The notes under the pieces were generated by a model. The model was not told the origin of the DNA and did no database searches. It saw nothing but the letters and a program-made list of their open reading frames with translations. A stretch of 32,000 bases of DNA from an uncultured bacterium (GTDB taxonomy: Bacteria; Babelota; Babeliae; Babelales; RVW-14): assembly GCA_963759805.1 (NCBI GenBank), contig CAVXAT010000009.1, forward strand, positions 8,635 through 40,634, given 5' to 3'. Shown here piece by piece: positions 2,463 to 22,200 of the stretch (the stretch's first letter is position 1; every line of letters begins with the position of its first letter). The translations under genes and the position numbers were made by a program.

Positions 2463-3931
2463 ATGAACAAAGTTGTAATCTATGCTCGAGTTTCATCCAA
2501 AGAGCAAGAATCTGAAGGCTATTCCATCCCATCTCAATCAAATTATTGAATGAACATGTTGAAAAGAATAAATTTGCTATCGTTGAAAAGTTTGTTGACG
2601 TTGAGACCGCAAAGAAAGCCGGACGACCAGAATTTAACAATATGATTGAGTTCGTAAAGCGTAATAAGTTTATTAAAGATATCCTGGTAGAGAAAACGGA
2701 TAGATTGCTACGCAATTTTTCTGATCTTGCAACAATTTATGACGAAATGATTATAGGCTTTGGGGTTAAGGTTCATTTCGTCAAAGAAGGCATAATACTT
2801 GATAAATCATCTAAGTCGACTGATAAGTTTTTCTTTGGACTTAGGGCTTTAATGGCCAAGCAAACGGTAGATAATCTATCTGAAGAAGTTCGAAAAGGGA
2901 TGAAAGAAAAGGCTGAGCAGGGAACATTGCCTACGCGTGCACCTTATGGCTATTTAAATGATGGAGTTAAGGGAAGAAGAGGCATAAAAGTAGATCCAGA
3001 CGCAGCTTCATATGTAATAAAAATGTTCGAATTATATGCAACTGGAACCTATACACTTTTTACACTACGCAAGAAAATGTTTGATGATGGAATCGTCTAT
3101 AGAAATGGTAAAAATTTTCATAAAAGCATTGTAGAGCGTATTCTAAAAAATGAATTTTACACTGGAGTGCTTAAGTGGGATGGTTTTAGAAATGAGAATG
3201 CTACGCATACTCCAATAGTTAGTAGGGAATTATTTAACCAAGTACAAGGATTGCTCGTGAGTACAAATAAACCTAAATCACGTAAGGGTCTATTCCCTTA
3301 CACAAATCTCATCAAATGTGGACTATGTGGGTGTTATATGACTGCTGAGATTAAAAAGGGAAAATACATTTACTATCGCTGTACTGGAAGTAAAGGCAAG
3401 TGCGCTCAGATATACATCAAGCAGGAGGCCCTTGATGTTGAATTTGAAAGGGTACTTGAAAGCATTCATATTCCCGAAGAAGGTCATCGCTTGATTATGA
3501 AGGGGCTAAAGGAAAATCTCAGCGAAAAGATAGAATATCATAATACCTGTGTTAAACAGATAGAATCACAGATAGCTTTATTGCAAGGTCGTATCGATAG
3601 GGCTTACACTGATAAAGTAGACGGAAAGATATGTGAAGAGTTTTGGCAGCAGAACACTGATAAATGGTTGGCCGAGAAAGAAGAGCTTACTACAAAATTG
3701 TTAAGTCTTCAGAAGACGGATACCTATTTCATGGAGAACATAAATTTAATCCTCGAACTCTCCAAACAAGCGGCTGAGCTATTTAAGACACAGAATGCTG
3801 AAGAAAAGCGTAGATTGATAAAATTGATAACATCGAACTGCATTTTAAAAGATGGGAAGATCGTGCTGGAGCTGGCTGAACCCTATAATGAAATCATGAA
3901 AACCAAGGAATCTGGGAAATGGTGTGCCTAG
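2463..3931 (+). pseudogene. Large serine recombinase (phage-integrase/TnpX type) disrupted by a 1-nt frameshift near 2537
   Basis: ATG 2463 encodes MNKVVIYARVSSKEQESEGYSIPSQ, the catalytic-Ser resolvase motif, then hits TGA at 2547-2549. The family sequence continues in another frame from about 2537 (IKLLNEHVEKNKFAIVEKFVDVETAKKAGRPEF...) for 461 more codons. These include the recombinase domain (APYGY), a zinc ribbon (CGLCGCYMTAE...YYRC) and a coiled-coil tail. One missing base after 2537 would restore a single frame. Confidence 0.85.
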
Positions 3932-3996
3932 CAGGACTCGAACCTGCGGCCTAGCGATTAGGAATCGCTCGCTCTATCCACCTGAGCTATAGGCAC
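3920..3996 (-). tRNA. tRNA-Arg (anticodon CCT), CCA encoded
   Basis: The reverse complement folds as a cloverleaf. Acceptor GTGCCTA/TAGGCAC, D arm GCTC-AGGTGGATA-GAGC, anticodon arm AGCGA-TTCCTAA-TCGCT, T arm GCAGG-TTCGAGT-CCTGC, then A-CCA. 77 nt. Confidence 0.9.
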
Positions 3997-4007
3997 TCAA
4001 AAAAGAG

Positions 4008-4081
4008 TGCGCCCGGCAGGGCTCGAACCTGCAACCTGCGGATTCGAAGTCCGACACTCTATCCAATTGAGCTACGGGCGC
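4008..4081 (-). tRNA. tRNA-Arg (anticodon TCG), no encoded CCA
   Basis: The reverse complement folds as a cloverleaf. Acceptor GCGCCCG/CGGGCGC, D arm GCTC-AATTGGATA-GAGT, anticodon arm TCGGA-CTTCGAA-TCCGC (one terminal mismatch), T arm GCAGG-TTCGAGC-CCTGC, discriminator A. 74 nt. Confidence 0.9.
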
Positions 4082-4164
4082 ATAAAAATCATTTACTTAT
4101 TTTTACCAGAGAAATAGAAAAAGAGCGAACATTTTGCATAAATTTTTATTGTATTTTGTATTTA

Positions 4165-4317
4165 ATGGGGCTCGAATGCACCTTCACGACTTGTCCCCCA
4201 TAGCTACCTGCCTGCCCATCGTAGCCACTTGGGCGAAGTTGGGAGCGAAGGGGGAAGGGCATAGGTGGGCTTGTCATCCGTAGCTATGAGCCCTTGAGGG
4301 CGAAAGCGAAGGATGAA
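4165..4317. repeat. GC-rich structured island with internal GTAGC(C/T)A(C/T) and GGGCGAAG-type sub-repeats
   Basis: Sharp GC spike inside an AT-rich spacer. Complementary segments: ATGGGG 4165-4170 with CCCCAT 4196-4201; CATAGCTAC 4199-4207 with GTAGCTATG 4280-4288; GGGCT 4267-4271 with AGCCC 4289-4293; GCCC-TTGA-GGGC 4290-4301. It has no ORF and contains one copy of the hairpin motif listed below. Confidence 0.5.
4215..4243 (+). repeat. GC-rich hairpin motif copy (stem CCCA/TGGG, loop TCGTAGCCACTTGGGCGAAGT)
   Basis: Shares the loop core CGTAGCCAC...GGGCG.AG with 12186-12213 and 8419-8449. The stem differs but stays complementary. Confidence 0.55.
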
Positions 4318-4363
4318 GCTACGGGCGCACAAAAACATATACTTATATTTACCAGAGAAATGG
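4318..4363 (-). other. Duplicated fragment: first 11 nt of tRNA-Arg(TCG) plus one flanking base and its upstream flank (imperfect copy of 4071-4117)
   Basis: GCTACGGGCGCA (4318-4329) is identical to 4071-4082. The following flank is similar with a few substitutions and indels, including the identical block TTACCAGAGAAAT (4349-4361 versus 4103-4115). Confidence 0.7.
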
Positions 4364-4582
4364 ATAAAATACCAGGAAATCTAGTCTTTTTCAAAAACAT
4401 TGTGTAAATCTTGCCAGCCCAAAATATTAATACCCTTGCAAGGCTCCTTTATGCGATTCAATGAGACATGTAATGGGTAGTTTGTAAATCTGCAATCCAA
4501 TTCTGTAATTGTAATGGCATCAAATTAAGTCTGGTAGAAGAGTTGGGAAAAATCATGTAAATAAGGGGCTTAGTTCATGCAC

Positions 4583-5236
4583 TTAATTTCTATAATATTC
4601 CAGAATATAGCGAGTTGGTTTGCCGTCTTCGTAAAAATATCCAATTTCTTTAAAGCCTGCTTTTTTCAAAGCTTTGTAGCTAGGTTTATTCCAAAGTCTT
4701 ACATGAGCATTAAAAACGTCTCTGTCGGGATGAAGTCTGAAATAAGTAGAGGAGATAAGTTTTATTGATTCCTGAATTCTGCCCCCACCGCGATAGTTTT
4801 CATTAATCCAGCATCCAAATTGTCCCGGATCGTCCGGGTTTTTTTCGCGAATTTCAAGCGATCCGATTAGCTTATTGCTTTTGTTATCAAAAATGATGTA
4901 CATAAGTTGCTTGCCTTCATGGCATTTTTCCATTTCAATTTTTAAATACCTGATGGTATAACTTAGAGTTATTGTTTCGGGAAACTCGAGACCTTTTCGT
5001 ACATTGTTTGAAAACATATTGTGATAATCAATGAAGTAATCCTCTTTGAGTGTGCGCAATGTTACTAGCTTTCCTTGAATCTCTTCAGGCGGTGTTAGAA
5101 GTTGGGTTTGTTTAACGTGTAACCAACCGGATTGGTAAACAAAATATCCTGCCGGTAGTGATAATAAAAAAGCTAGCAGTAGCCATTTTATAATAGATTT
5201 TCTATTGAATATAATTTTCCGAATATTAAAATTCAT
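4583..5236 (-). CDS. GNAT-family N-acetyltransferase (RimJ/RimL-like) with N-terminal membrane anchor
   Basis: 217 aa. Residues about 15-35 are hydrophobic (WLLLAFLLSLPAGYFVY). The C-terminal part carries GNAT-like motifs (GCWINENYRGGGRIQESI..., NKPSYKALKKAGFKEIG). Confidence 0.75.
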   Translation of the reverse strand: MNFNIRKIIFNRKSIIKWLLLAFLLSLPAGYFVYQSGWLHVKQTQLLTPPEEIQGKLVTLRTLKEDYFIDYHNMFSNNVRKGLEFPETITLSYTIRYLKIEMEKCHEGKQLMYIIFDNKSNKLIGSLEIREKNPDDPGQFGCWINENYRGGGRIQESIKLISSTYFRLHPDRDVFNAHVRLWNKPSYKALKKAGFKEIGYFYEDGKPTRYILEYYRN

Positions 5237-5357
5237 GATTTCTCCCCTCCCTTACTACCCCAAATTTTAACAAAACTTTGTCCATAAAAATTGTTTTATT
5301 ATCTGAAGTTTAAACTAATCTGGTTACCTGCAGCAATAAATAAACAAATAAACTGTT

Positions 5358-6980
5358 TTAAAGTGGTATATTTCCATGCTTTTTCTTTGCCGAAAGTTCG
5401 ACTTTGTTTTTTAATATTTCAATCGCGCGAATTAGATGATATCGTGTTTTGATCGGTTCGATGATAGCGTCGATATATCCATTTTCGGCTGCGGTCAAAG
5501 GGTTCATGAACTCTTCTTCGTACTGTGTCTCAAGTTTCTGAATAAGCGCTTCTCTGTTTTCAGGAAGAGCTTTTTCTATTTCAGATCGGTGTAAGATAGC
5601 AATTGCACCTTTTGCTCCAAGAACTGCTATTTGAGCGTTGGGCCATGCAAAATTAAAATCTGCACCGAGTTCTTTGCTGCCCATAACAACGTAAGCTCCA
5701 CCAAATGCCTTGCGTAAAATTAGTGTGATTTTGGGAACGGTGGCTGAGGCATAAGCGTAAATTAACTTTGCACCATGGCGAATTATACCGTTGTGTTCCT
5801 GTTCGACCCCCGGTAAAAAACCGGGAACATCAACCAACGAAATTATAGGTATGCAGAATGCATCGCAAAAATTAATAAATCTTGCAGCTTTGCATGAAGC
5901 CTGAATGTCGATTACTCCGGCTTTGACTTTTGGCTGGTTCGCGACCAGTCCGATATTTTTTCCATCAAGTTTTGCAAATCCAACAACAATATTTGGTGCG
6001 AAATATTCATGAACTTCGAAAAAACTTTTTGAATCAAAAATGGAATTAATCAGATGTCTTATGTCATAGCCTTGTGAAAAATTTTTAGGGACTAGTCCCG
6101 TAGGGAGCAGACCCGTAGTGTCAAGATCCATGGGAGCAAGATTTGCAGGATTAAAACCCGTAGAGTCAAGACTTGCAGAATCAAGATTCGTAAGATTAAA
6201 ATCTGCCTGGTGATTCTCTTGAGCCCCTGGTTCAGATAAATAATTTTGTGGCAAATATGACAAAAGCCTTTTGACCTGTTCCAAGCACTCGTCCTCACTG
6301 TTCGCAACAAAGTGTGCAACACCGGACTTTTGTGCATGGACCAATGCCCCACCAAGCTCCTCTTTTGATACCTTTTCGTGTAAAACCTGTTCTACCACCT
6401 GAGGTCCTGTTATAAACATGTTGCTGGTGTTGATAGTTGTAAAAACAAAGTCGGTCAGAGCGGGGGAGTAGGTTGCACCGCCTGCACATGGGCCAAGAAT
6501 TATTGAAATTTGAGGAATAATCCCTGAATATTTGACGTTACGCATAAAAATCTGACCATAGCCGGCAAGAGCGTGAACCCCTTCATCGATACGAGCACCA
6601 CCTGAATCTATTATTCCAATTATGGGGCAACCAACTTTAGCGGCCATGTCCATGATTTTGCAAATCTTATCTGCATGTCGCTTGCCAAGAGAGCCACCTT
6701 TTATTGTAAAGTCCTGGGCGTAAACGGCAACCTGCCTCCCCTGAATGGTCCCAAAACCGGTTACGACGCCGTCTGTTATAAATTTTTCTTCTAAAAACAG
6801 TGATTTTGCGAGATGATCAAGTTCTTCAAAACTTTCTTGATCAAGAAGATACTCCAGCCTTTCCCACGCAGTTTTTTTCCCTAGTTTATGCTGCCTTTCT
6901 GTCTTTTGCTCGATGATATTCGACCCAACCATTGTGCCCATCTGAACGGGCGTTCCCATAATTGCAATATCTGCCGACAC
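5358..6980 (-). CDS. Acyl-CoA carboxylase carboxyltransferase (beta) subunit, PccB/AccD5/methylmalonyl-CoA decarboxylase-alpha family
   Basis: 540 aa with a family-typical pattern (TAWERLEYLLD..SF.E, GVVTGFG.I.GR.V.VYAQDFT..GGSLG, PII...DSGGARI.EG, FAWP.A.IAV.G..GA..I, ...GNIPL). GTG start at 6980; an internal ATG at 6959 is an alternative. Confidence 0.9.
   Translation of the reverse strand: MSADIAIMGTPVQMGTMVGSNIIEQKTERQHKLGKKTAWERLEYLLDQESFEELDHLAKSLFLEEKFITDGVVTGFGTIQGRQVAVYAQDFTIKGGSLGKRHADKICKIMDMAAKVGCPIIGIIDSGGARIDEGVHALAGYGQIFMRNVKYSGIIPQISIILGPCAGGATYSPALTDFVFTTINTSNMFITGPQVVEQVLHEKVSKEELGGALVHAQKSGVAHFVANSEDECLEQVKRLLSYLPQNYLSEPGAQENHQADFNLTNLDSASLDSTGFNPANLAPMDLDTTGLLPTGLVPKNFSQGYDIRHLINSIFDSKSFFEVHEYFAPNIVVGFAKLDGKNIGLVANQPKVKAGVIDIQASCKAARFINFCDAFCIPIISLVDVPGFLPGVEQEHNGIIRHGAKLIYAYASATVPKITLILRKAFGGAYVVMGSKELGADFNFAWPNAQIAVLGAKGAIAILHRSEIEKALPENREALIQKLETQYEEEFMNPLTAAENGYIDAIIEPIKTRYHLIRAIEILKNKVELSAKKKHGNIPL
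6087..6203 (-). repeat. In-frame degenerate tandem repeat (about 45-nt/15-aa unit) inside the carboxyltransferase linker
   Basis: Encodes FNLTNLDSA-SLDSTGFNPANLAPM-DLDTTGLLPTGLVP. On the coding strand the units AGTCTTGACTCTACGGGT and GATCTTGACACTACGGGT lie 45 nt apart. Confidence 0.7.
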
Positions 6981-7133
6981 CTTACACCCACCTATGTTAA
7001 AATACAGCTCTTTAAAATTATTATTTACTTGTACTGGAACACGCAGTATAACATAGAGTATGGTGTAATCAAATGCCCCCCGGGGGCATGCCAGATACCA
7101 AGGATAGTAAGTTTAAAAATGGGAGCGGAGGTA

Positions 7134-7706
7134 ATGAATCAAAATCAAAGGATTCCTCAAAACAATTCAAGTGTTGCATGGTTCAAAATTGCCAATCTGA
7201 TTGAACGAAAAGAACGAGAAAAGGCATTGAGCGTTTATAAGCTTATGTCCCATTCACTGCAGGATAGAGCATATGCCTTGCAACTGGAGGGTGACATTCT
7301 GTGGTATTTTGAAGAGATTCCGGAATCCTGTTTGAAATATCTGCAGTCTGCATTTTTGTACAGAAATGCCCAACGTTGGCTTGATGCCGTTTCGCTTTAT
7401 GAACAAGTTTCCCTTCTTGACCCAAATAATTATGATGCGTTGATTTATTCAGTGCCTTGCTATGCGCAGCTTGCTTGGGATAAGAAATTTAAACAAAACT
7501 TGGAGACGATTTCTGCTTTTGTATCACAGAACCCGTCTGATGAAAAATTGGTTGCCCATTTAATTAAAAGCCTTGCCGAGGTTGTTCGCGAAATTGATGT
7601 TGTGAGTTTTAAAACTCAGTTACATGATAAGTTAGTACAGTTGCTAGCATCAATCCCCAAACATATGGCAGAAAAACTTGATCCGGTAGTTAAAAAGTGT
7701 CTTTAG
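7134..7706 (+). CDS. Hypothetical protein, helical-repeat (TPR-like) appearance
   Basis: The track ORF 6888..7706 overlaps the divergent carboxyltransferase start. The first plausible starts are ATG 7119 or ATG 7134, the latter preceded by GGAGCGGAGG. No recognisable catalytic motifs. Confidence 0.55.
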   Translation: MNQNQRIPQNNSSVAWFKIANLIERKEREKALSVYKLMSHSLQDRAYALQLEGDILWYFEEIPESCLKYLQSAFLYRNAQRWLDAVSLYEQVSLLDPNNYDALIYSVPCYAQLAWDKKFKQNLETISAFVSQNPSDEKLVAHLIKSLAEVVREIDVVSFKTQLHDKLVQLLASIPKHMAEKLDPVVKKCL

Positions 7707-7717
7707 TTGCGTATTTT

Positions 7718-10700
7718 TTATAATTCTATAGAGATACCAACGCTACAATCAGTTTGTAGTTTCAAAAGCGTATCAAGCGCGCAGCTTACTTTTTGTCTTG
7801 AAAAAACAGTTAGAAGTTGATCATTTTCATTAAACTTAAATTTAAGTGGAATGCTTCCTGCCGGAAGCAATGTTTTGATCTGATTCATTTGTGCGTCAGT
7901 TGTTGAGCGCGGTAGTTTTAGCGTTAATCCTTGAATGTTTTCACATTTATCGAAGAAGTGTTCGATTGGGATCATTTTGTTTGCTTTGATTTTACACTTA
8001 TTCTGAGAAGTGATATCAAGAGCACCGCGAATTACAAAGACATTGTACTGTCCAAGCAAAGATCCGACGTCTTTGAATACTGATGGAAAGACTATGATTT
8101 CACAATGACCTGAAAGATCTGCAAGATCGACAAATGCCATGCGATCGCCTTTTTTAGTTGTGATTTCTTTGTAGCCCTGTACAAAACCCACCACTGTTAC
8201 AAATGGTTCTTTAACAGAATTAATTGTTTTTATTTTATCTAGGCAATCAGTAAAACTTTCGGTCTTTAGCCATTTAATCTGGGGATAACTTTTTAGTGGA
8301 TGTGAGCTTAGATAAAAACCAATGACCTCTTTCTCTTTTTCCAGTTTCTCTTTGTCCGAAAATTCCGGCAATAATTGAAATGCATAAGCAGGATATCCTG
8401 AATCAAGAGATCCTGAATCCCGCCTACGCCCTGCCGTGGCTACGTCGGGCACGGCAAGTTCCTGGCTTTGTGCTGTTGATTCTGGCTGTGCGCTCATACC
8501 AAACAGATCCATCTGCCCTGTTTTTTCTTTCTCCTTTTCTGCGTGGGCTATGTCAATAATCTTATCAATTTCGGCTATCTTTTGTGCGCGATTGCCCGGC
8601 AAGCAGTCGAATGCTCCGGCGTATGTTAAATTTTCAAGGACTCTTTTATTTGCCGTTCGTAAATCCACTCTCTTACAAAAATCGAGTAAATCTGAAAATG
8701 GCTTTTTATCTCTCTGCTCAAGAATGTTTACAAGTGCTGCTCCCCCAACGTTTTTAATTCCCTGTAATCCAAAAACAATTTTTCCCTCAGCCGATTTAAA
8801 TTCCGAATCAGACAGATTAATATTTGGTGGAATCATCGTTAACCCCATATCCTGAATTTCATGCAGATAAAGTTCAAATGCATCAGGGTTGCTTGTTTCT
8901 AATGAGATTAAGCTGGCCATAAATTCATTGGGGTAGTGTGATTTTAGATATGCTGTGTGATAGGCAATTAAGGCGTAAGCCGTAGAGTGGGATTTATTAA
9001 ATCCATACCCGGCAAAGTAAGCCATCAAGTCAAACAGTTCGACCGCTTTTTTTTCATCAAATCCACGTTCTTTGGAGCCTTTAACAAACAACACCTTTTG
9101 TTGCTCCATAACTTCAAATTTTTTCTTACCCATGGCTTTACGCAGAATGTCTGCGCCGCCTAACGTGTAGCCTGCTATTGCAGATGCAATCTTCATAACC
9201 TGTTCTTGATAAACGATGACGCCATAAGTCTCTGACAACACCGGTTCAAGTTCCGGGAACATATACGTTGTCTTTTTACGGCCGTGACGACGGTCAATGT
9301 AATCGTCGACCATGCCCGAGCCAAGTGGGCCGGGGCGGTAAAGTGCGTTAACTGCAATTAGGTCTTCAAATTTGTCCGGTTGCAGCTTGCGCAAAACATC
9401 TTTAATCCCATCGGATTCAAACTGGAATATTCCGTTTGAATTTCCATCGCACAAAAGTTTAAATGCCTTGTCATCATAAAGCGGTAGGGTATCAAGATCG
9501 ATTTCCACGCCATGATTTTTTTTGATGGCTTTCAGCGTGCGGTCAATGACGGTTAAGTTTTTCAGGCCAAGAAAGTCCATCTTTAAAAAGCCAAGAGCTT
9601 CAAGATCGGTCATTGAGTATTGCGAGACTAAATCGTCAGATTTAGATGGAACATAAAGTGGCATTGTTTCTTGCAGTGCCGTTGGTGATATTACAATTCC
9701 GGCCGCATGTTTTGAAGCGTGTCTGGTTAACCCTTCAAGGGTTAAGGCTATCTCAAAAAGTTTCTGCACTTTTGGATTTGATTGTATTAAATCTTTTAAT
9801 TTGGGTTCCTGCTCAATGGCTTCTCCCAATGTTATTTTTAACTGCTCCGGAATTAGGTCCGTAATTGCATTTGCATCTTGAAACGGAAAGCCAAGTACCC
9901 GAGCGACATCTTTAAGCACACCTTTGGCCATCATTGTTCCGAATGTAATGATTTGGCATACGCAGTCATGTCCGTACTTTTCTTTGACGTAATCAATGAC
10001 TTCTTCTCGTCTTTCGATGCAAAAGTCTATATCTATATCAGGCATGCTTATACGTTCGGGGTTTAGGAAGCGCTCAAAAAGTAAATTAAATTTTAATGGG
10101 TCAACGTTTGTGATCTCAAGCGCCCATGCGACAAGAGATCCTGCGGCAGAACCTCGTCCGGGGCCGATGGGAATACCTTGACGTTTTCCCCACTGAATGA
10201 AATCACTGACTACCAAAAAGTAGCCCACAAAACCCATTTTTTCAATTAAATCGACTTCGAGTTTTAAGCGTGCATCGTACTGTTCAAACTGATCCGCAGG
10301 GATTAAATTTTTCTGTTTTAATTTATCAAGACCTGTTGTACACAAGTGTTCAAAAAAACTTTCTGGTGTATGTTGTTCCGGAATTGGGAATTTGGGGAAG
10401 AACAGTTTACCAAACACGAAATTAAATTCACATCTGTCTGCTATTTCCCCGGTGTGCCACATGGCGTCTAGTGCATCCGGGTTGCCTTTAAAAGATTCAC
10501 GAATTTCTTCTTCTGTCCTGAGGTGTCCCGAAAATTCTCCAAATGAGAATCGCTTAGGGTTGTCTATCTGATCTTTTGTTTGTATTGAAAGCAGGACTTC
10601 GTGAGCGTCATGATCCTGTTTGTTTACAAAGTGGGCGTCGCAACCGACGGTTAATGGAACTCCCCATTTTTTGCTGTACTCAATTAAAAGTGGATTTGTG

Positions 10701-11245
10701 ATTCGGTTAATTTCAATCTCCGGTGGTGCAATTTCGAAATAAAATCTGTCGCCGAGCAGGTTTTTCATGAAAGTGGTTCGTGTTTCAGCCTCTTGAATGT
10801 TTCCGTCGCGCAGTAATGTTGGTATATGTCCGCCAACACATGCAGTTGTAATAATTAGGCCTTGCGAATATTTTTCGAGTTGGGCGTAATCTATTCGAGG
10901 CTTGAAGTAGAATCCGTCTTGGTATGCAAACGAGAATAACCGGCACAAATTTTTGTAACCTTGTTCATTCTGCACAATTAGCATTATATGATGATATCGG
11001 TCTTTGTTATCTTTGATTTTTGCATCGGGAGTTATATACATCTCAACGCCAAGAATGGGCTTTATGCCTTCTTTCTTAGCCAACTGGAAGAATTTAATTG
11101 CACCAAAAATATTGCCATGATCAGAAATTCCGACGGCTTTCCAGTTATTTTGCTTGCAAAATTTTAGCAAGTCAGGAATTTTTATTGCTCCATCAAGCAG
11201 CGAAAATTCGGTATGTAAATGCAGATGTACAAAATGCTTATCCAT
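7718..11245 (-). CDS. dnaE: DNA polymerase III alpha subunit
   Basis: 1175 aa. N-terminal PHP domain (HLHLHTEFSLLDGA), polymerase core (PDIDIDF, KMDFLGLKNL, YRPGP), HhH region and C-terminal OB fold. Confidence 0.97.
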   Translation of the reverse strand: MDKHFVHLHLHTEFSLLDGAIKIPDLLKFCKQNNWKAVGISDHGNIFGAIKFFQLAKKEGIKPILGVEMYITPDAKIKDNKDRYHHIMLIVQNEQGYKNLCRLFSFAYQDGFYFKPRIDYAQLEKYSQGLIITTACVGGHIPTLLRDGNIQEAETRTTFMKNLLGDRFYFEIAPPEIEINRITNPLLIEYSKKWGVPLTVGCDAHFVNKQDHDAHEVLLSIQTKDQIDNPKRFSFGEFSGHLRTEEEIRESFKGNPDALDAMWHTGEIADRCEFNFVFGKLFFPKFPIPEQHTPESFFEHLCTTGLDKLKQKNLIPADQFEQYDARLKLEVDLIEKMGFVGYFLVVSDFIQWGKRQGIPIGPGRGSAAGSLVAWALEITNVDPLKFNLLFERFLNPERISMPDIDIDFCIERREEVIDYVKEKYGHDCVCQIITFGTMMAKGVLKDVARVLGFPFQDANAITDLIPEQLKITLGEAIEQEPKLKDLIQSNPKVQKLFEIALTLEGLTRHASKHAAGIVISPTALQETMPLYVPSKSDDLVSQYSMTDLEALGFLKMDFLGLKNLTVIDRTLKAIKKNHGVEIDLDTLPLYDDKAFKLLCDGNSNGIFQFESDGIKDVLRKLQPDKFEDLIAVNALYRPGPLGSGMVDDYIDRRHGRKKTTYMFPELEPVLSETYGVIVYQEQVMKIASAIAGYTLGGADILRKAMGKKKFEVMEQQKVLFVKGSKERGFDEKKAVELFDLMAYFAGYGFNKSHSTAYALIAYHTAYLKSHYPNEFMASLISLETSNPDAFELYLHEIQDMGLTMIPPNINLSDSEFKSAEGKIVFGLQGIKNVGGAALVNILEQRDKKPFSDLLDFCKRVDLRTANKRVLENLTYAGAFDCLPGNRAQKIAEIDKIIDIAHAEKEKEKTGQMDLFGMSAQPESTAQSQELAVPDVATAGRRRDSGSLDSGYPAYAFQLLPEFSDKEKLEKEKEVIGFYLSSHPLKSYPQIKWLKTESFTDCLDKIKTINSVKEPFVTVVGFVQGYKEITTKKGDRMAFVDLADLSGHCEIIVFPSVFKDVGSLLGQYNVFVIRGALDITSQNKCKIKANKMIPIEHFFDKCENIQGLTLKLPRSTTDAQMNQIKTLLPAGSIPLKFKFNENDQLLTVFSRQKVSCALDTLLKLQTDCSVGISIEL
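8419..8449 (-). repeat. GC-rich hairpin motif copy inside dnaE, on the sense strand (stem CCCG/CGGG, loop ACGTAGCCACGGCAGGGCGTAGG)
   Basis: The minus strand reads CCCGACGTAGCCACGGCAGGGCGTAGGCGGG. It is translated in frame as part of ...VPDVATAGRRRDSG.... It sits in a local GC spike within the AT-rich gene. Confidence 0.55.
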
Positions 11246-11385
11246 AAGACCCAGCTATTTTAAAAATTACCGTTATTACAAGTTCTAAAGCTTAACTAAT
11301 TTTTGAATAAATGTTGAGCTGATTTATTTTAAAAATTTTCATATGAATCCCTGAGGGTGTGGCGCATATTAATGGTAGGATCTAA

Positions 11386-12217
11386 GTGATTCAAAGAACA
11401 GTAGTTTTTCCAATAGTTCTCGACAAAGCGCAAGCGGAAGCCCTTGGCGAAACCGCAAGGCTTTACAAAGAAGCCTGGCAGCATTGCATTGATGTTGCAT
11501 GGGATTCCGAAGAACTGTCTGCCATAGATCTTCACAAAAAAGTCTATGCATTGCTGAAGGCAAGGCTTGGTCTTAAATCTCAATATCTGTGTTCTGCGAG
11601 AAATAGAGCGGTAGAAAATGTTAAGGCAGTAAGAATTCTTTCGAAAAAAGGAATAAAGACGTGCAAGCCGGAGCTTAGGCATGTTCCAATTCGTTTGGAT
11701 GCCAGAACACTTTCGTTTGACAAGCCTAGGGAAACAGCTTCTGTTGCAACTCAACAAGGAAAATTGCGATCGAATTGTAGCAAAAGAATTGATTTCTAGG
11801 CTTCAGCCTGGAGATACTGTGGTTTTGGAACGATTGACCAACATAAGAAAGCGCTGTGGTGAAAAGGGAAGGGCCCGTAAAAAGCATAGGGCTCATATGG
11901 GAAGGTGGAGTTTTAATCGCGTTGAAAACGCAATTAATTACGGTGCAGAGTTGCATGGAATTTACGTTGAATACGTTGAACCGCATTATACGTCTCAAAC
12001 ATGTTCTCAATGTAATATTGTGCTCAAAACAAATAGAAAAAGCCAATCTCTTTACTCCTGTTCGTGTGGTCTTATGTTAAACGCAGATCTCAATGCTGCT
12101 AGAAATATTTCAAACAAGTGGTGTATTGCCAATGGCTATATACCCGGGCTGCCTGTCAACCAGCCTATTGTAGCGAGTTACCTGTCCTCCGTAGCCACGA
12201 AGGGCGAAGGAGGATAA
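11386..12217 (+). pseudogene. tnpB: tnpB (RNA-guided nuclease of IS200/IS605) remnant: frameshifted and internally deleted
   Basis: The N-terminal frame (11386-11799) matches the TnpB N-terminal pattern. The C-terminal frame (useful from about 11755 to 12217) has RuvC-II (VVLERL), a Zn finger (CSQCN...CSCG) and RuvC-III (NADLNAARNI). Two frames and about 277 codons in total, versus about 380-410 for intact TnpB. No GxDLG RuvC-I motif is present. Confidence 0.8.
12185..12214 (+). repeat. GC-rich hairpin motif copy at the tnpB 3' end (stem TCCTCC/GGAGGA, loop GTAGCCACGAAGGGCGAA)
   Basis: Read directly. It lies in the region where TnpB omega-RNA scaffolds are normally encoded (last part of the ORF plus the right end). 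Confidence 0.6.
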
Positions 12218-12397
12218 AAATTCAGTTACAAGCTTTCGACTTTAGTCGAGAGTTGTTGACGTTGCTTAATAACTGGCTATTAATGGCTTGCGCATAATTC
12301 AGTTAAAAAAACAAATATCTTTATCTAGATGATCACTAGCGATTATTCTAACTGACAGAATTAAGTATTTGGATGTCCATACTATTGGAGGGAGAGT

Positions 12398-13402
12398 ATG
12401 AAAAAACGGTTTCGCGTGAAATTTTTTGCGTGCGTGTCCTTCTCGCTCTGTATTTTTCAAGTTGATGCCGCACGTCGATGCCAAGAGTGCCAAGATGTTG
12501 TTGTGGACAATGTTGTAGTGCAAAAGGGACTTAGTGATTGTCAAGGGTACTACGACGCTATTAAGCCCATATTAGATCGATACAAACGTCCTATTACGGT
12601 ACTTGATCTTGGTGCCGGACAAGGATATTTTTCATTTCGTATAGCCCATGATTATGATTCAACATGCATTATGGTTGAGGATAATCGTGATTCATCTCGA
12701 CGGGCCGACCAACTCTTAGAGCTTTGTCATTTGAACTCTCATTTGCAAAACATAGTTCTTTTAAAAGAAAAAATGTCATTGCAAGAGTTGCAAAAGCTTG
12801 CCGATTGTGAGCATTTTGATGTTGTTTTGGCTTTTGATTATATTAATCCTGAAAGTCGCCATTGGAAACAAAAAATTAATGCGATATTACGCCTGGGGAA
12901 CAATATATTTATCCAGGCTCCTTGGTCCTCAGAAAACGAGGCAGCAAGAAGTGTTGTTGAGTTTCTTGCTAAACGATCTGGAAAATTGATTTTACAAACT
13001 CCTTGTGCATATGAACCCAAAATTGAAGAGCAAATGTTTTGGTTGCAGCGCAGTAAAGAATGGTTGTACTGCAAGTGTTTTGCTTACCAGAGTAAGGATT
13101 TATTCCGTATTGAAAGCTCTTATGTGCACAAGACCTTGATTAAAAAAGGCCATTCATCTGGTCCCGAATGGAAAAAGGGAATAAATCTTGTAACATTTCT
13201 TATGCTTAATGGTACATATCCAACTAAAAAAAGTATTAAGCAAGCAGTATCCCGACTTACAAGAGAAAGACTAATGGATTTTGTGCCAAAGAACCTAATA
13301 GTACAAGGCAGTAATATTGCGCTTATCGACCAAAATGATAAAGAATGGCGTGAAGTTGATATACAAAGAAGTTTAGAATTCATAAATGATGTCATCGATT
13401 AA
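12398..13402 (+). CDS. Class I SAM-dependent methyltransferase with N-terminal signal peptide
   Basis: 334 aa. The N-terminus MKKRFRVKFFACVSFSLCIFQVDA looks like a Sec signal. Motif I VLDLGAGQGYFSF is followed by an acidic post-I residue (MVEDN) and VVLAFDYI. GGAGGGAG RBS upstream. Confidence 0.7.
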   Translation: MKKRFRVKFFACVSFSLCIFQVDAARRCQECQDVVVDNVVVQKGLSDCQGYYDAIKPILDRYKRPITVLDLGAGQGYFSFRIAHDYDSTCIMVEDNRDSSRRADQLLELCHLNSHLQNIVLLKEKMSLQELQKLADCEHFDVVLAFDYINPESRHWKQKINAILRLGNNIFIQAPWSSENEAARSVVEFLAKRSGKLILQTPCAYEPKIEEQMFWLQRSKEWLYCKCFAYQSKDLFRIESSYVHKTLIKKGHSSGPEWKKGINLVTFLMLNGTYPTKKSIKQAVSRLTRERLMDFVPKNLIVQGSNIALIDQNDKEWREVDIQRSLEFINDVID

Positions 13403-21060: not shown

Positions 21061-22200
21061 CTATAAAAACAGTTCGGATAAAAATTTTTCTGCACTCAAT
21101 ATTTTTATTTCATTTTGCTCATGTTCATGACGAAGTAATTTAACCAATTGAATAGCGGGATAGTTATATTTTTCATGAAAATGTACCAACGCATGGCTAA
21201 GAGATCCATCTGACAGTTTAACTTCTATTATCTGTTCAACATTTTCTTGTCGAGCTAATGCAAAGTCCACTTCTATTCCATCTTTTGTACGCAAATAATG
21301 TAGATTATACTCTTCGGCATGATAATCGGTTTTTGCGCAAGCATGTTTTAGTAGACTGACGGCAACTAAATTTTCTAACTTTGCTCCATCATCCCCCTGC
21401 ACAAGGCCTGTATCAAAAAAGTATATTTTGGGCTCTTTCAACAAGCTGCGTGCAATATTTTTGGAGTAAGGGGTCACTCTAAAAATAATGTATAAAGCTT
21501 CTAAAATCTGGATATATTTTTTTATCGTCATTGGAGATACAGCAACATCCTCTGCCAAAGATTGGAATGAAACCGGTGAGCCAACACGATTTCTTAATAA
21601 ATTAAAAACAAGCTGCATAGCCTTTAAATTATAAATTTTATCTATTTCAAAAACATCAGAACTTAAAATACTGTTAATATACTGCAATCGCCATCTACTG
21701 GCTTCAACTTCATCATCAACCAAATAAGGTTCCGGAAAACCACCTCGCACAATCAGCCTTTGGATATCCAATGGCTCAGATACCTGCGCAAGCTCAGCCA
21801 AAGAGAGTGGGAATAATCTATGTCGGAAATACCGTCCGGCCAATGAGTCTCCTAAGTGGTCATAGATATCCAAGCGGGCGCTGCCTGTTACCAAGACATG
21901 CATAGATTCAGGTTTTGTATCATACAATCCCTTGAGATAATTCTTCCAATCTCGCATTTTATGAAGTTCATCAAGCACCAAAAGATCCGTAGTTGGCAAC
22001 CAAGACTGCGCGCTAATAATTTCGCGATCTAAGATTTGATCATAATTGAGATAGACACTGCTTTTAAATTCTTTTGCAATGTCCTTTGCCAACCAGGTTT
22101 TACCTGACTGGCGAGGCCCAACGATAAGAACCATTTTTTTTTCTAAATCCCTAAGGATCCACTGTTTTTGTATTCTCTTCATATGACTATAATATATCAT
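21061..22200 (-). CDS. AAA+ ATPase of the AAA_14/DUF4143-like (COG1373-like) type, function unknown
   Basis: 379 aa with Walker A GPRQSGKT and Walker B LLVLDELH. The C-terminal half resembles the DUF4143-type architecture by pattern, not by search. It lies antisense between fabG and acpP. Confidence 0.75.
   Translation of the reverse strand: MIYYSHMKRIQKQWILRDLEKKMVLIVGPRQSGKTWLAKDIAKEFKSSVYLNYDQILDREIISAQSWLPTTDLLVLDELHKMRDWKNYLKGLYDTKPESMHVLVTGSARLDIYDHLGDSLAGRYFRHRLFPLSLAELAQVSEPLDIQRLIVRGGFPEPYLVDDEVEASRWRLQYINSILSSDVFEIDKIYNLKAMQLVFNLLRNRVGSPVSFQSLAEDVAVSPMTIKKYIQILEALYIIFRVTPYSKNIARSLLKEPKIYFFDTGLVQGDDGAKLENLVAVSLLKHACAKTDYHAEEYNLHYLRTKDGIEVDFALARQENVEQIIEVKLSDGSLSHALVHFHEKYNYPAIQLVKLLRHEHEQNEIKILSAEKFLSELFL

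Follow-up and report, generated by a model that had tools for sequence, protein, structure and literature searches.

Background

The mobile GC clusters of yeast mitochondria, GC-rich palindromes of 30-50 nt in AT-rich DNA, move, nest, form arrays and occur in frame in the var1 gene. Among the Rickettsia palindromic elements (RPEs), RPE-1 has a size of about 100-150 nt, and in insertion sequences (IS) with a tnpB gene, scaffolds of the omega RNA (reRNA) are encoded in the tnpB 3' region. The small dispersed repeats (SDRs) of Nostoc, SDR1-8, reportedly described by Elhai et al. in 2008, are said to measure 21-27 nt, to share a hairpin with compensatory changes, to insert into themselves and to be confined to one cyanobacterial subgroup. 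Precise insertion of SDR5 into HIP1 is cited in a further account (PMC4390886). Repetitive extragenic palindromes (REPs) with a GTAG or CGTC tag are imperfect hairpins of 20-40 nt with a short unpaired terminal tag, subfamilies with compensatory stems, frequent G-T pairs and variable loops that may possess GC..GC termini, and they occur as singletons, dimers and clusters (PMC3733652). REPs are mostly intergenic, although they are sometimes found in frame in genes, including those for replication and repair, with one example in the dnaE gene of R. conorii; RPE-4 and RPE-6 are CGTC-tagged REPs themselves (PMC3733652). The present study concerns a hairpin element of about 30-45 nt, with a basic form of about 30-34 nt, in a stretch of 32,000 nt (hereafter the window) of contig CAVXAT010000009.1 (assembly GCA_963759805.1) from an uncultured bacterium of the Babelales. 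The window contains five copies, namely copy A in dnaE, copy B at the 3' end of a tnpB remnant, and copies C and D together with an outer copy split by copy C, all three in a GC island beside tRNA-Arg (Table 1).

The hairpin is read here, with a probability of roughly 0.7, as the core of a miniature insertion element that is both non-coding and non-autonomous. In the window, the unit was gained as a discrete piece at two sites, copies lie within copies, the family is dispersed, its arms covary and open reading frames (ORFs) tolerate it.

Results and discussion

A hairpin unit with covarying arms

An earlier note on the window, made from the sequence alone, had reported three hairpins of 29-31 nt with a conserved loop. 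All three sites were located by exact matches of CGTAGCCAC-N2-5-GGGCGWAG, at 4220-4238 (+), 8424-8444 (-) and 12190-12209 (+), and no match occurred in 100 dinucleotide-preserving shuffles of the window. The closing arms (CCTCC/GGAGG, CCCA/TGGG and CCCG/CGGG) are complementary as claimed, and each copy forms a GC spike (GC 0.54-0.66, versus 0.386 for the window). Three points had to be revised. The three elements are real, but two additional copies are present in the GC island beside tRNA-Arg. The core is present as proposed, but the unit is longer, comprising a 5' tag (CCTG or CTTG) and one further arm base pair, which results in lengths of 41 nt (copy A), 34 nt (copy B) and 38 nt (copy C). 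Lastly, the loop as such varies, whereas the basal CGTAGC...GCGWAG is conserved, the apical CAC..GG being the mark of a subtype.

On the purine-rich strand, the unit starts with the tag CCTG (or CTTG), followed by the arm YCC-NN, C, GTA, GC(C) and a variable tip, after which (G)GC, G(A/T)A, G and the arm N'N'-GGR complete it; the 3' end is GGA or GGG. When folded, it has an outer stem of 5-6 bp and a GC helix of 2-3 bp, between which lies a purine-rich internal loop that is symmetric (3x3, with GUA opposite GAA or GUA). The tip may consist of 3-4 nt, carry an additional small hairpin or accommodate another complete copy. The outer helix is 89.6% paired in 24 genome copies, with double changes in five of the six pairs, and 94.5% paired in 73 metagenome copies that were picked regardless of their 3' arm. 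In both copy sets, none of 500 shuffles attained the observed pairing or covariation score, which bears out the claim of a structured element with a covarying closing helix. The two middle stem pairs take GC, UA, AU and CG forms, and the tip-closing pair alternates between CG (38) and UA (27) in the metagenome copies. Imperfect arm pairs on the purine-rich strand are G-T in 41 cases versus A-C in 11, suggesting that this strand is the one selected for folding, as RNA or as single-stranded DNA. Folding z-scores of single copies are weak (-0.3 to -3.1), so that folding energy alone is insufficient to support the structure. An intrinsic terminator was considered and rejected, as none of nine terminator-like sites in 4000-12400 coincides with a copy and no T run is present.

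Two covariance models were used, R1, built from 24 copies, and R2, built from 73 metagenome copies with no window sequences. Hits of R2 in the window with E<=1 consisted of the four intact copies only (B, 1.7e-11; C, 2.2e-9; D, 3.3e-5; A, 0.099). With R1, copy D was found as a fourth significant window copy at 4263-4321, outside the training set.

Table 1. Positions of the element copies and of the genes and sequences that carry them. Positions refer to the window, except in the last row, where they refer to external loci (L numbers).
Feature	Position	Strand	Basis
Outer copy, CTTG-TCCCC-C-ATA-GC..GC-GAA-G-GGGGA, split by copy C	4190..4255	+	sequence reading; fold
Copy C, 38 nt, inside the outer copy (apical loop)	4207..4244	+	R1; fold; R2 E=2.2e-9
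Copy D, with long apical insert (GCCC-TTGA-GGGC hairpin)	4270..4316	+	R1 E=2.3e-6, R2 E=3.3e-5; in neither training set
dnaE (DNA polymerase III alpha, 1175 aa), containing copy A	7718..11245	-	
Native GATTCAGGA (codons of SLDSG), direct repeat of the last 9 nt of the insert (8411-8419)	8396..8404	-	
60-nt in-frame dnaE insertion encoding QSQELAVPDVATAGRRRDSG	8412..8471	-	ortholog comparison
Copy A, full unit, 41 nt: CTTG tag, arms and core, ending in GGGA	8418..8458	-	covariance models R1, R2
Copy A, hairpin core, CCCG-A-CGTAGCCAC-GGCA-GGGCGTAG-G-CGGG, in frame in dnaE	8419..8449	-	
tnpB remnant of IS605-type element, two frames, no tnpA; TnpB homology stops at the start of copy B	11386..12184	+	
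Copy B, 34-nt unit CCTGTCCTCCGTAGCCACGAAGGGCGAAGGAGGA, within the 3' end of the tnpB remnant; new tail SYLSSVATKGEGG, then stop	12181..12214	+	gap in L009, L010, L011; R2; fold
Displaced ancestral tnpB tail KNSVTSFRL, then stop (12216-12245), and IS right end with subterminal hairpin	12216..12260	+	
Copies overlapping a tRNA CCA end	L006:19828-19865, L017:3672-3701, L038:3788-3817, L053:1265-1294, L113:2067-2109, L127:2023-2048, L195:11213-11239		

Filled and empty sites

A first site at which the gain of the unit can be followed is dnaE, the nearest named homologs of which belong to Candidatus Dependentiae / Babeliales (TM6). The copy is translated in frame as ...QSQELAVPDVATAGRRRDSGSLDSG..., in agreement with the earlier note, and the 20 extra residues are unique to the DnaE of the window, being absent from 40 of the 40 best homologs (65-90% identity) in a protein alignment. 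They fall within a variable segment that is flanked by GQMDLFG and by the conserved FQxL..EKEKEV(I/A)GFYLSSHP block, so that the proposal of a lineage-specific insert of about 20 residues in a variable linker was supported by the ortholog alignment. At the DNA level, two relatives (L002 and L007, with 90% and 88% protein identity, respectively) lack exactly the 60 nt, corresponding to window 8471-8412 (-), whereas an independent assembly (L001) carries the same insertion in identical form. Relatives encoding the same residues with AT-rich codons, which would have pointed to ancestral sequence, were looked for; given the absence of the insert from the 40 orthologs, those of 90% and 88% identity included, none was found.

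The 60-nt insert consists of unit A with about 13 nt on its left and 6 nt on its right, and it is composite, made up of the unit, a possible decayed half-copy at the left and the tail. Copy A, which was among the training copies of R1 and scores 49.2 bits with that model, shares the 3' tail ATTCAGGRTC with copies at L054 (the genome of a relative), L013 and L053, and these form a subfamily. The native GATTCAGGA is situated six bases beyond this tail, where the corresponding sequence of L002 reads GATTCAG. As the GATTCAGGA tail belongs to the element subfamily, the 9-nt repeat may represent microhomology at insertion or a coincidence. The dnaE copy would be a tolerated passenger that adds 20 residues to the variable linker in front of the OB fold. 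The gene order around dnaE differs from that in close relatives.

A second site is the 3' end of the tnpB remnant, part of which is an ORF at 11681-12217 with a Cas12f1-like TNB domain. The C-termini of homologous TnpB proteins end in ...VNQPIVANSKNSVTSFRL, whereas that of the window ends in ...VNQPIVASYLSSVATKGEGG, which includes the tail ...SVATKGEGG and the stop read before. Aligned with three homologous tnpB 3' ends (L009, L010 and L011), the window shows a clean 34-column gap opposite approximately 12180-12213, which means a net gain of 34 nt relative to the three IS homologs, with a boundary that is ambiguous by one base. Conserved IS sequence is present on both sides of copy B, up to a common right end near 12260. 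One of the homologs (L009) lies in an IS605-type element that carries a Y1 transposase too.

The position of copy B, within the last 80 nt or so of the IS, had led the earlier note to suggest an omega-RNA scaffold, from which the other copies might derive by spread from the IS. The three IS homologs align through this region without the 34-nt unit, and the ancestral KNSVTSFRL tail with its stop remains encoded intact downstream of it, so that the idea was rejected. As copy B is foreign to the IS and its scaffold, the other copies are not scaffold-derived either; moreover, the element occurs at hundreds of loci without a tnpB gene nearby, and Rfam gave no match to omega-RNA or IS605-orfB RNA models over 4000-12400 at E<=10. 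An origin as omega-RNA fragments is thus highly improbable. Copy B instead invaded the part of the tnpB remnant where an omega RNA would be encoded, disrupting the C-terminal tail. An inverted duplication of the target, through which the arms would have been copied from it, was rejected as well, since both arms of copy B are absent at the empty site. Just upstream of the insertion point, at 12170-12177, the IS sequence reads GTAGCGA(A/G); it resembles a loop-less element core (GTAGC..GCGAA) and may be a pseudo-target. In L009 (9325-12376), a gene for the reverse transcriptase of a group II intron (RVT_1 + GIIM) comes no more than about 550 nt after the same IS605-type element, which has a Y1 transposase and a tnpB in fragments.

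The variability of the dnaE linker, and nothing else, speaks for a similarity due to chance or for ancestral dnaE sequence with GC-rich codons. The shuffles without any match, the orthologs of 88-90% identity without the 60 nt, and the location of the same sites by the externally built R2 reduce the probability of this explanation to practically nil. An ancestral origin of the dnaE and tnpB inserts would need identical independent deletions in more than 40 lineages.

In the GC island, the predicted fold of 4185-4262 pairs the outer arms (CCCCC/GGGGG) and GCU/AGC around the inner copy C. By synteny, copy D corresponds to an orthologous copy of the 88% relative (L006/L007). The tips of both are almost identical and their arms differ yet stay complementary (CATC/GATG versus CCGC/GC(T)GG).

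Occurrence outside the window

All external loci were found by pattern, so that the counts given here are no estimate of abundance or host range, and contigs flagged as viral may be misclassified. In a strict-pattern scan of genome representatives, most of the matches listed arose in GC-rich genomes by chance or in coding sequence, and membership of the family was limited to the low-GC ones. Among the matches listed, about 20 low-GC genome loci share (G)CCTGYCC-NN-CGTAGCCAC-N3-5-GGGCGWAG-N'N'-GGR. They occur mostly in metagenome-assembled genomes (MAGs) of Babeliales/Dependentiae, in the genome of the 88% relative and in several unclassified MAGs; other hosts belong to Lentisphaeria, Kiritimatiellia, Verrucomicrobiota and Bdellovibrionota. 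Hence, copies beyond the window, as envisaged by the earlier note, were found by genome search and covariance model. Running R1 on the genome loci revealed further copies without the CAC..GG tip, indicating that conservation resides in the base, CGTAGC...GCGWAG, along with the arms and the tag, and that the tip varies.

A generalised pattern, CCTGYCC-NN-CGTAGC-N2-30-GCGWAG, was scanned in metagenome and viral-contig collections, yielding at least 125 metagenome matches as well as matches in viral contigs. Among the 125 listed metagenome matches, 88 have an unselected 3' arm that is complementary to NN and followed by GG (about 2% expected by chance), and 74 possess a 4-nt tip (CTTG, TTTA, CTCG or TTCA). 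A relaxed finder retrieved 222 copies in the fetched loci, versus two in reversed-sequence controls, and nine dispersed copies in both orientations were present in one contig of 14.5 kb. Among 309 copies, 214 have CCTG as their unpaired terminal tag, a share inflated by the collection of about 240 loci with a CCTG-containing pattern, and 21 have CTTG. Across loci with a GC content of 0.32-0.71, the internal loop and its flanking pairs are invariant, with variable tip and arms. The element was thus found in many uncultured bacteria and in viral-flagged contigs. One of the latter, with a GC content of 0.41 (L274:3717-6111), contains three identical copies, GGATG-CCTGCCCTT-CGTAGC-GCA-GCGTAG-AAGGG-ATAGCA, each in sense orientation at a boundary of co-directional genes. 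At another locus (L100:4200-5420), two identical copy pairs are found in a repeat of about 1.1 kb, between genes that resemble, by eye, paralogous Rpn/YhgA-type (PD-(D/E)XK) nucleases.

Placement, nesting and tRNA ends

At loci with a GC content of at most 0.5, about 85% of the copies are intergenic, without a strict preference for one orientation, 44 being antisense-flanked and 26 sense-flanked. Another 20 copies are intragenic in long ORFs (for instance at L054, L087, L088, L097 and L129), eight in sense and 12 in antisense orientation, and the ORFs are not broken. Nesting follows a fixed rule. When the inner unit was excised in silico, seven of nine strict cases had it precisely at the CGN^AGC step of the outer core and two had it in the tip; the nest in the window is of the tip type. 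Looser cases, including a triple nest and tandem arrays, obey the same rule.

Seven independent copies overlap the 3' end of a tRNA by exactly CCA, always in the opposite orientation, with about 0.006 expected by chance, and the distal arm of the element pairs with CCA. This arrangement, together with the adjacency of the window cluster to tRNA-Arg genes, would fit a tRNA 3'-trailer hairpin that serves as a processing or termination signal by pairing with CCA, the other copies being decayed duplicates. However, it occurs in only 7 of 309 copies and without a T run, the window cluster is on the 5' side of its tRNA, and genic insertions are left unexplained. As the CCA arrangement is equally compatible with an insertion preference, a tRNA-trailer origin seems distinctly unlikely.

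Proposed mobility and the evidence against it

As a miniature insertion element, the unit would be copied and inserted in trans by an enzyme encoded by the host or by a mobile element, which would recognise the folded single strand via the tag, the stem and the GTAG-containing internal loop. This mechanism is proposed by analogy with REP/RAYT systems and IS200/IS605 ends, in which a tag and an irregular hairpin form the recognition element. Integration would prefer unpaired sites in other hairpins, such as the CGN^AGC step, the tip or the CCA end of a tRNA gene. The independently spreading, RPE-like mini-element that the earlier note had offered as a possibility agrees with the empty sites, the dispersal and the in-frame insert.

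Several observations weigh against mobility of this kind. Firstly, no target-site duplication was seen, nor was a target consensus found outside other copies; the left flanks of the copies share no motif except inside other copies. Secondly, when the 2214 ORFs located up to 2.5 kb from a copy were clustered all against all, neither a recurrent neighbour nor a mobilising gene emerged. The largest ORF cluster near copies covered nine of 164 loci, all on viral-flagged contigs, and no candidate transposase stood out among the unannotated clusters. Two candidate partners, a gene between two inverted copies at L013 (an AlaX-type editing protein by eye) and the genes of L100 that resemble Rpn/YhgA-type nucleases by eye, do not recur. 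Thirdly, copy A reaches no better than E=0.099 with the metagenome-only model, being fourth in the window and the most diverged, and the dnaE insert exceeds the unit by 19 nt and carries a 9-nt repeat of native sequence. Given these extra 19 nt and the repeat, the dnaE event may have been a capture of a templated or gene-conversion-like kind instead of a clean transposition. Fourthly, the external loci stem from the pattern searches described above. Lastly, an RNA motif or protein-binding motif under selection would likewise agree with an internal loop conserved across phyla and with the excess of G-T.

Such a functional module, for example with a loop-E- or kink-like purine loop, would be maintained by selection, with dispersal as a secondary effect. 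It would account for the invariance of the internal loop and flanking pairs across the GC range given above, next to variable tip and arms, for the excess of G-U over A-C on one strand, and for the viral-flagged contig with three identical sense copies between co-directional genes. However, copies occur in both orientations relative to neighbouring genes and inside ORFs, nesting and tandem arrays are typical of repeats, and neither an Rfam match nor a constant genetic context was found. A functional RNA or protein-binding module is therefore considered unlikely, albeit with some weight of its own.

Comparison with described repeats

At the gathering threshold or E<=10, no Rfam family was found on the copies, and the region 4000-12400 gave tRNA and noise only. 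A literature search with CGTAGCCAC and six core variants returned unrelated primer matches only, and a keyword search on Dependentiae repeats gave nothing relevant. The BLAST search with the consensus gave no match in PLSDB plasmids and none covering 80% of the query in cultured-phage records, and no matching sequence was present in the supplements of the REP survey (PMC3733652).

With REPs and REPINs, which are associated with the TnpA_REP Y1 transposase (RAYT), the element shares a small imperfect palindrome, compensatory subfamilies and a dispersed, mostly extragenic location. In contrast to GTAG-tagged REPs, its terminal tag is CCTG/CTTG and GTAG is internal, between the outer stem and the inner GC helix, so that it does not conform to the GTAG tag that defines those repeats. 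Furthermore, its core is nearly identical across distant lineages, whereas REP sequences are species-specific, its copies nest at a fixed internal site, and no RAYT or partner gene was found among the ORFs near copies. The IS605 Y1 TnpA in the related contig L009 is not adjacent to copies, the ORF comparison having covered 2.5 kb around them.

Similarly, SDRs are very small units with a shared hairpin, compensatory changes, nested self-insertion at an exact site and many contexts, but the present unit is larger (about 30-45 nt) and its occurrence extends over Dependentiae, the PVC group, Bdellovibrionota and many unassigned contigs; this comparison was made by description, not by sequence. As is the case for RPEs, the window shows an in-frame, lineage-specific insert that adds a peptide to an essential protein, RPE hosts being obligate intracellular bacteria; unlike RPEs, the unit is much smaller than RPE-1 and the family is not restricted to intracellular bacteria. 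One copy is situated in a tnpB 3' region, and the IS200/IS605 family works via hairpins recognised as single strands, but the unit is not integral to the IS, being absent from homologous IS copies, and TnpB homology ends at 12184. IS200/IS605-derived palindrome-associated transposable elements (PATEs) differ by distinct left and right subterminal hairpins and by insertion 3' of a fixed target of 4-5 nt, compared with a single hairpin and no tetranucleotide target here. The yeast GC clusters are organellar and unrelated in sequence, the likeness being one of description only. The element thus appears to be undescribed and REP/SDR/RPE-like, and it is set apart from SDRs by description only.

Other features of the window

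The window is a segment of a bacterial chromosome with ssb, a serine recombinase gene, two tRNA-Arg genes, dnaE, tsf-pyrH-frr and fab genes. The large serine recombinase ORF at 2546-3931 (+), with Resolvase, Recombinase and zinc ribbon domains, has its 3' end within tRNA-Arg(cct) at 3920-3996 (-) and looks like part of an element integrated at a tRNA gene. An AAA_14/DUF4143 ATPase gene at 21061-22200 (-) separates fabG from acpP/fabF; as fabG-acpP-fabF is contiguous in the 90% relative L002, it represents a lineage-specific gene insertion in the fab operon. Three tandem ORFs of 736, 691 and 703 aa at 24903-31729 (-), the first without a Pfam match, are possibly paralogs.

Conclusions

A more far-reaching interpretation, put forward tentatively and considered doubtful at present, is that of an undescribed cross-phylum superfamily among the smallest known mobile elements, in which the hairpin would serve for recognition and also act as the favoured target, moved in single-stranded form by a widespread enzyme and able to add peptides to essential proteins such as the replicative polymerase. 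For annotation, copy B teaches that the 3' end of tnpB may carry hairpins that are no part of the omega RNA. Spurious or altered ORF tails arise from the copies, one of which adds an in-frame peptide to an essential protein in the window; the copies also mark recent genome change in uncultured symbionts. The element bears on how the smallest palindromic repeats, such as REPs, RPEs and SDRs, move, and offers clean material: the unit measures about 34 nt, its sites can be compared exactly in empty and filled form, copies nest at a fixed point, and docking at tRNA CCA ends is reproducible. Its core is conserved from AT-rich intracellular Dependentiae to GC-rich contigs. Taken together, such properties make a search for the mobilising enzyme directly feasible.

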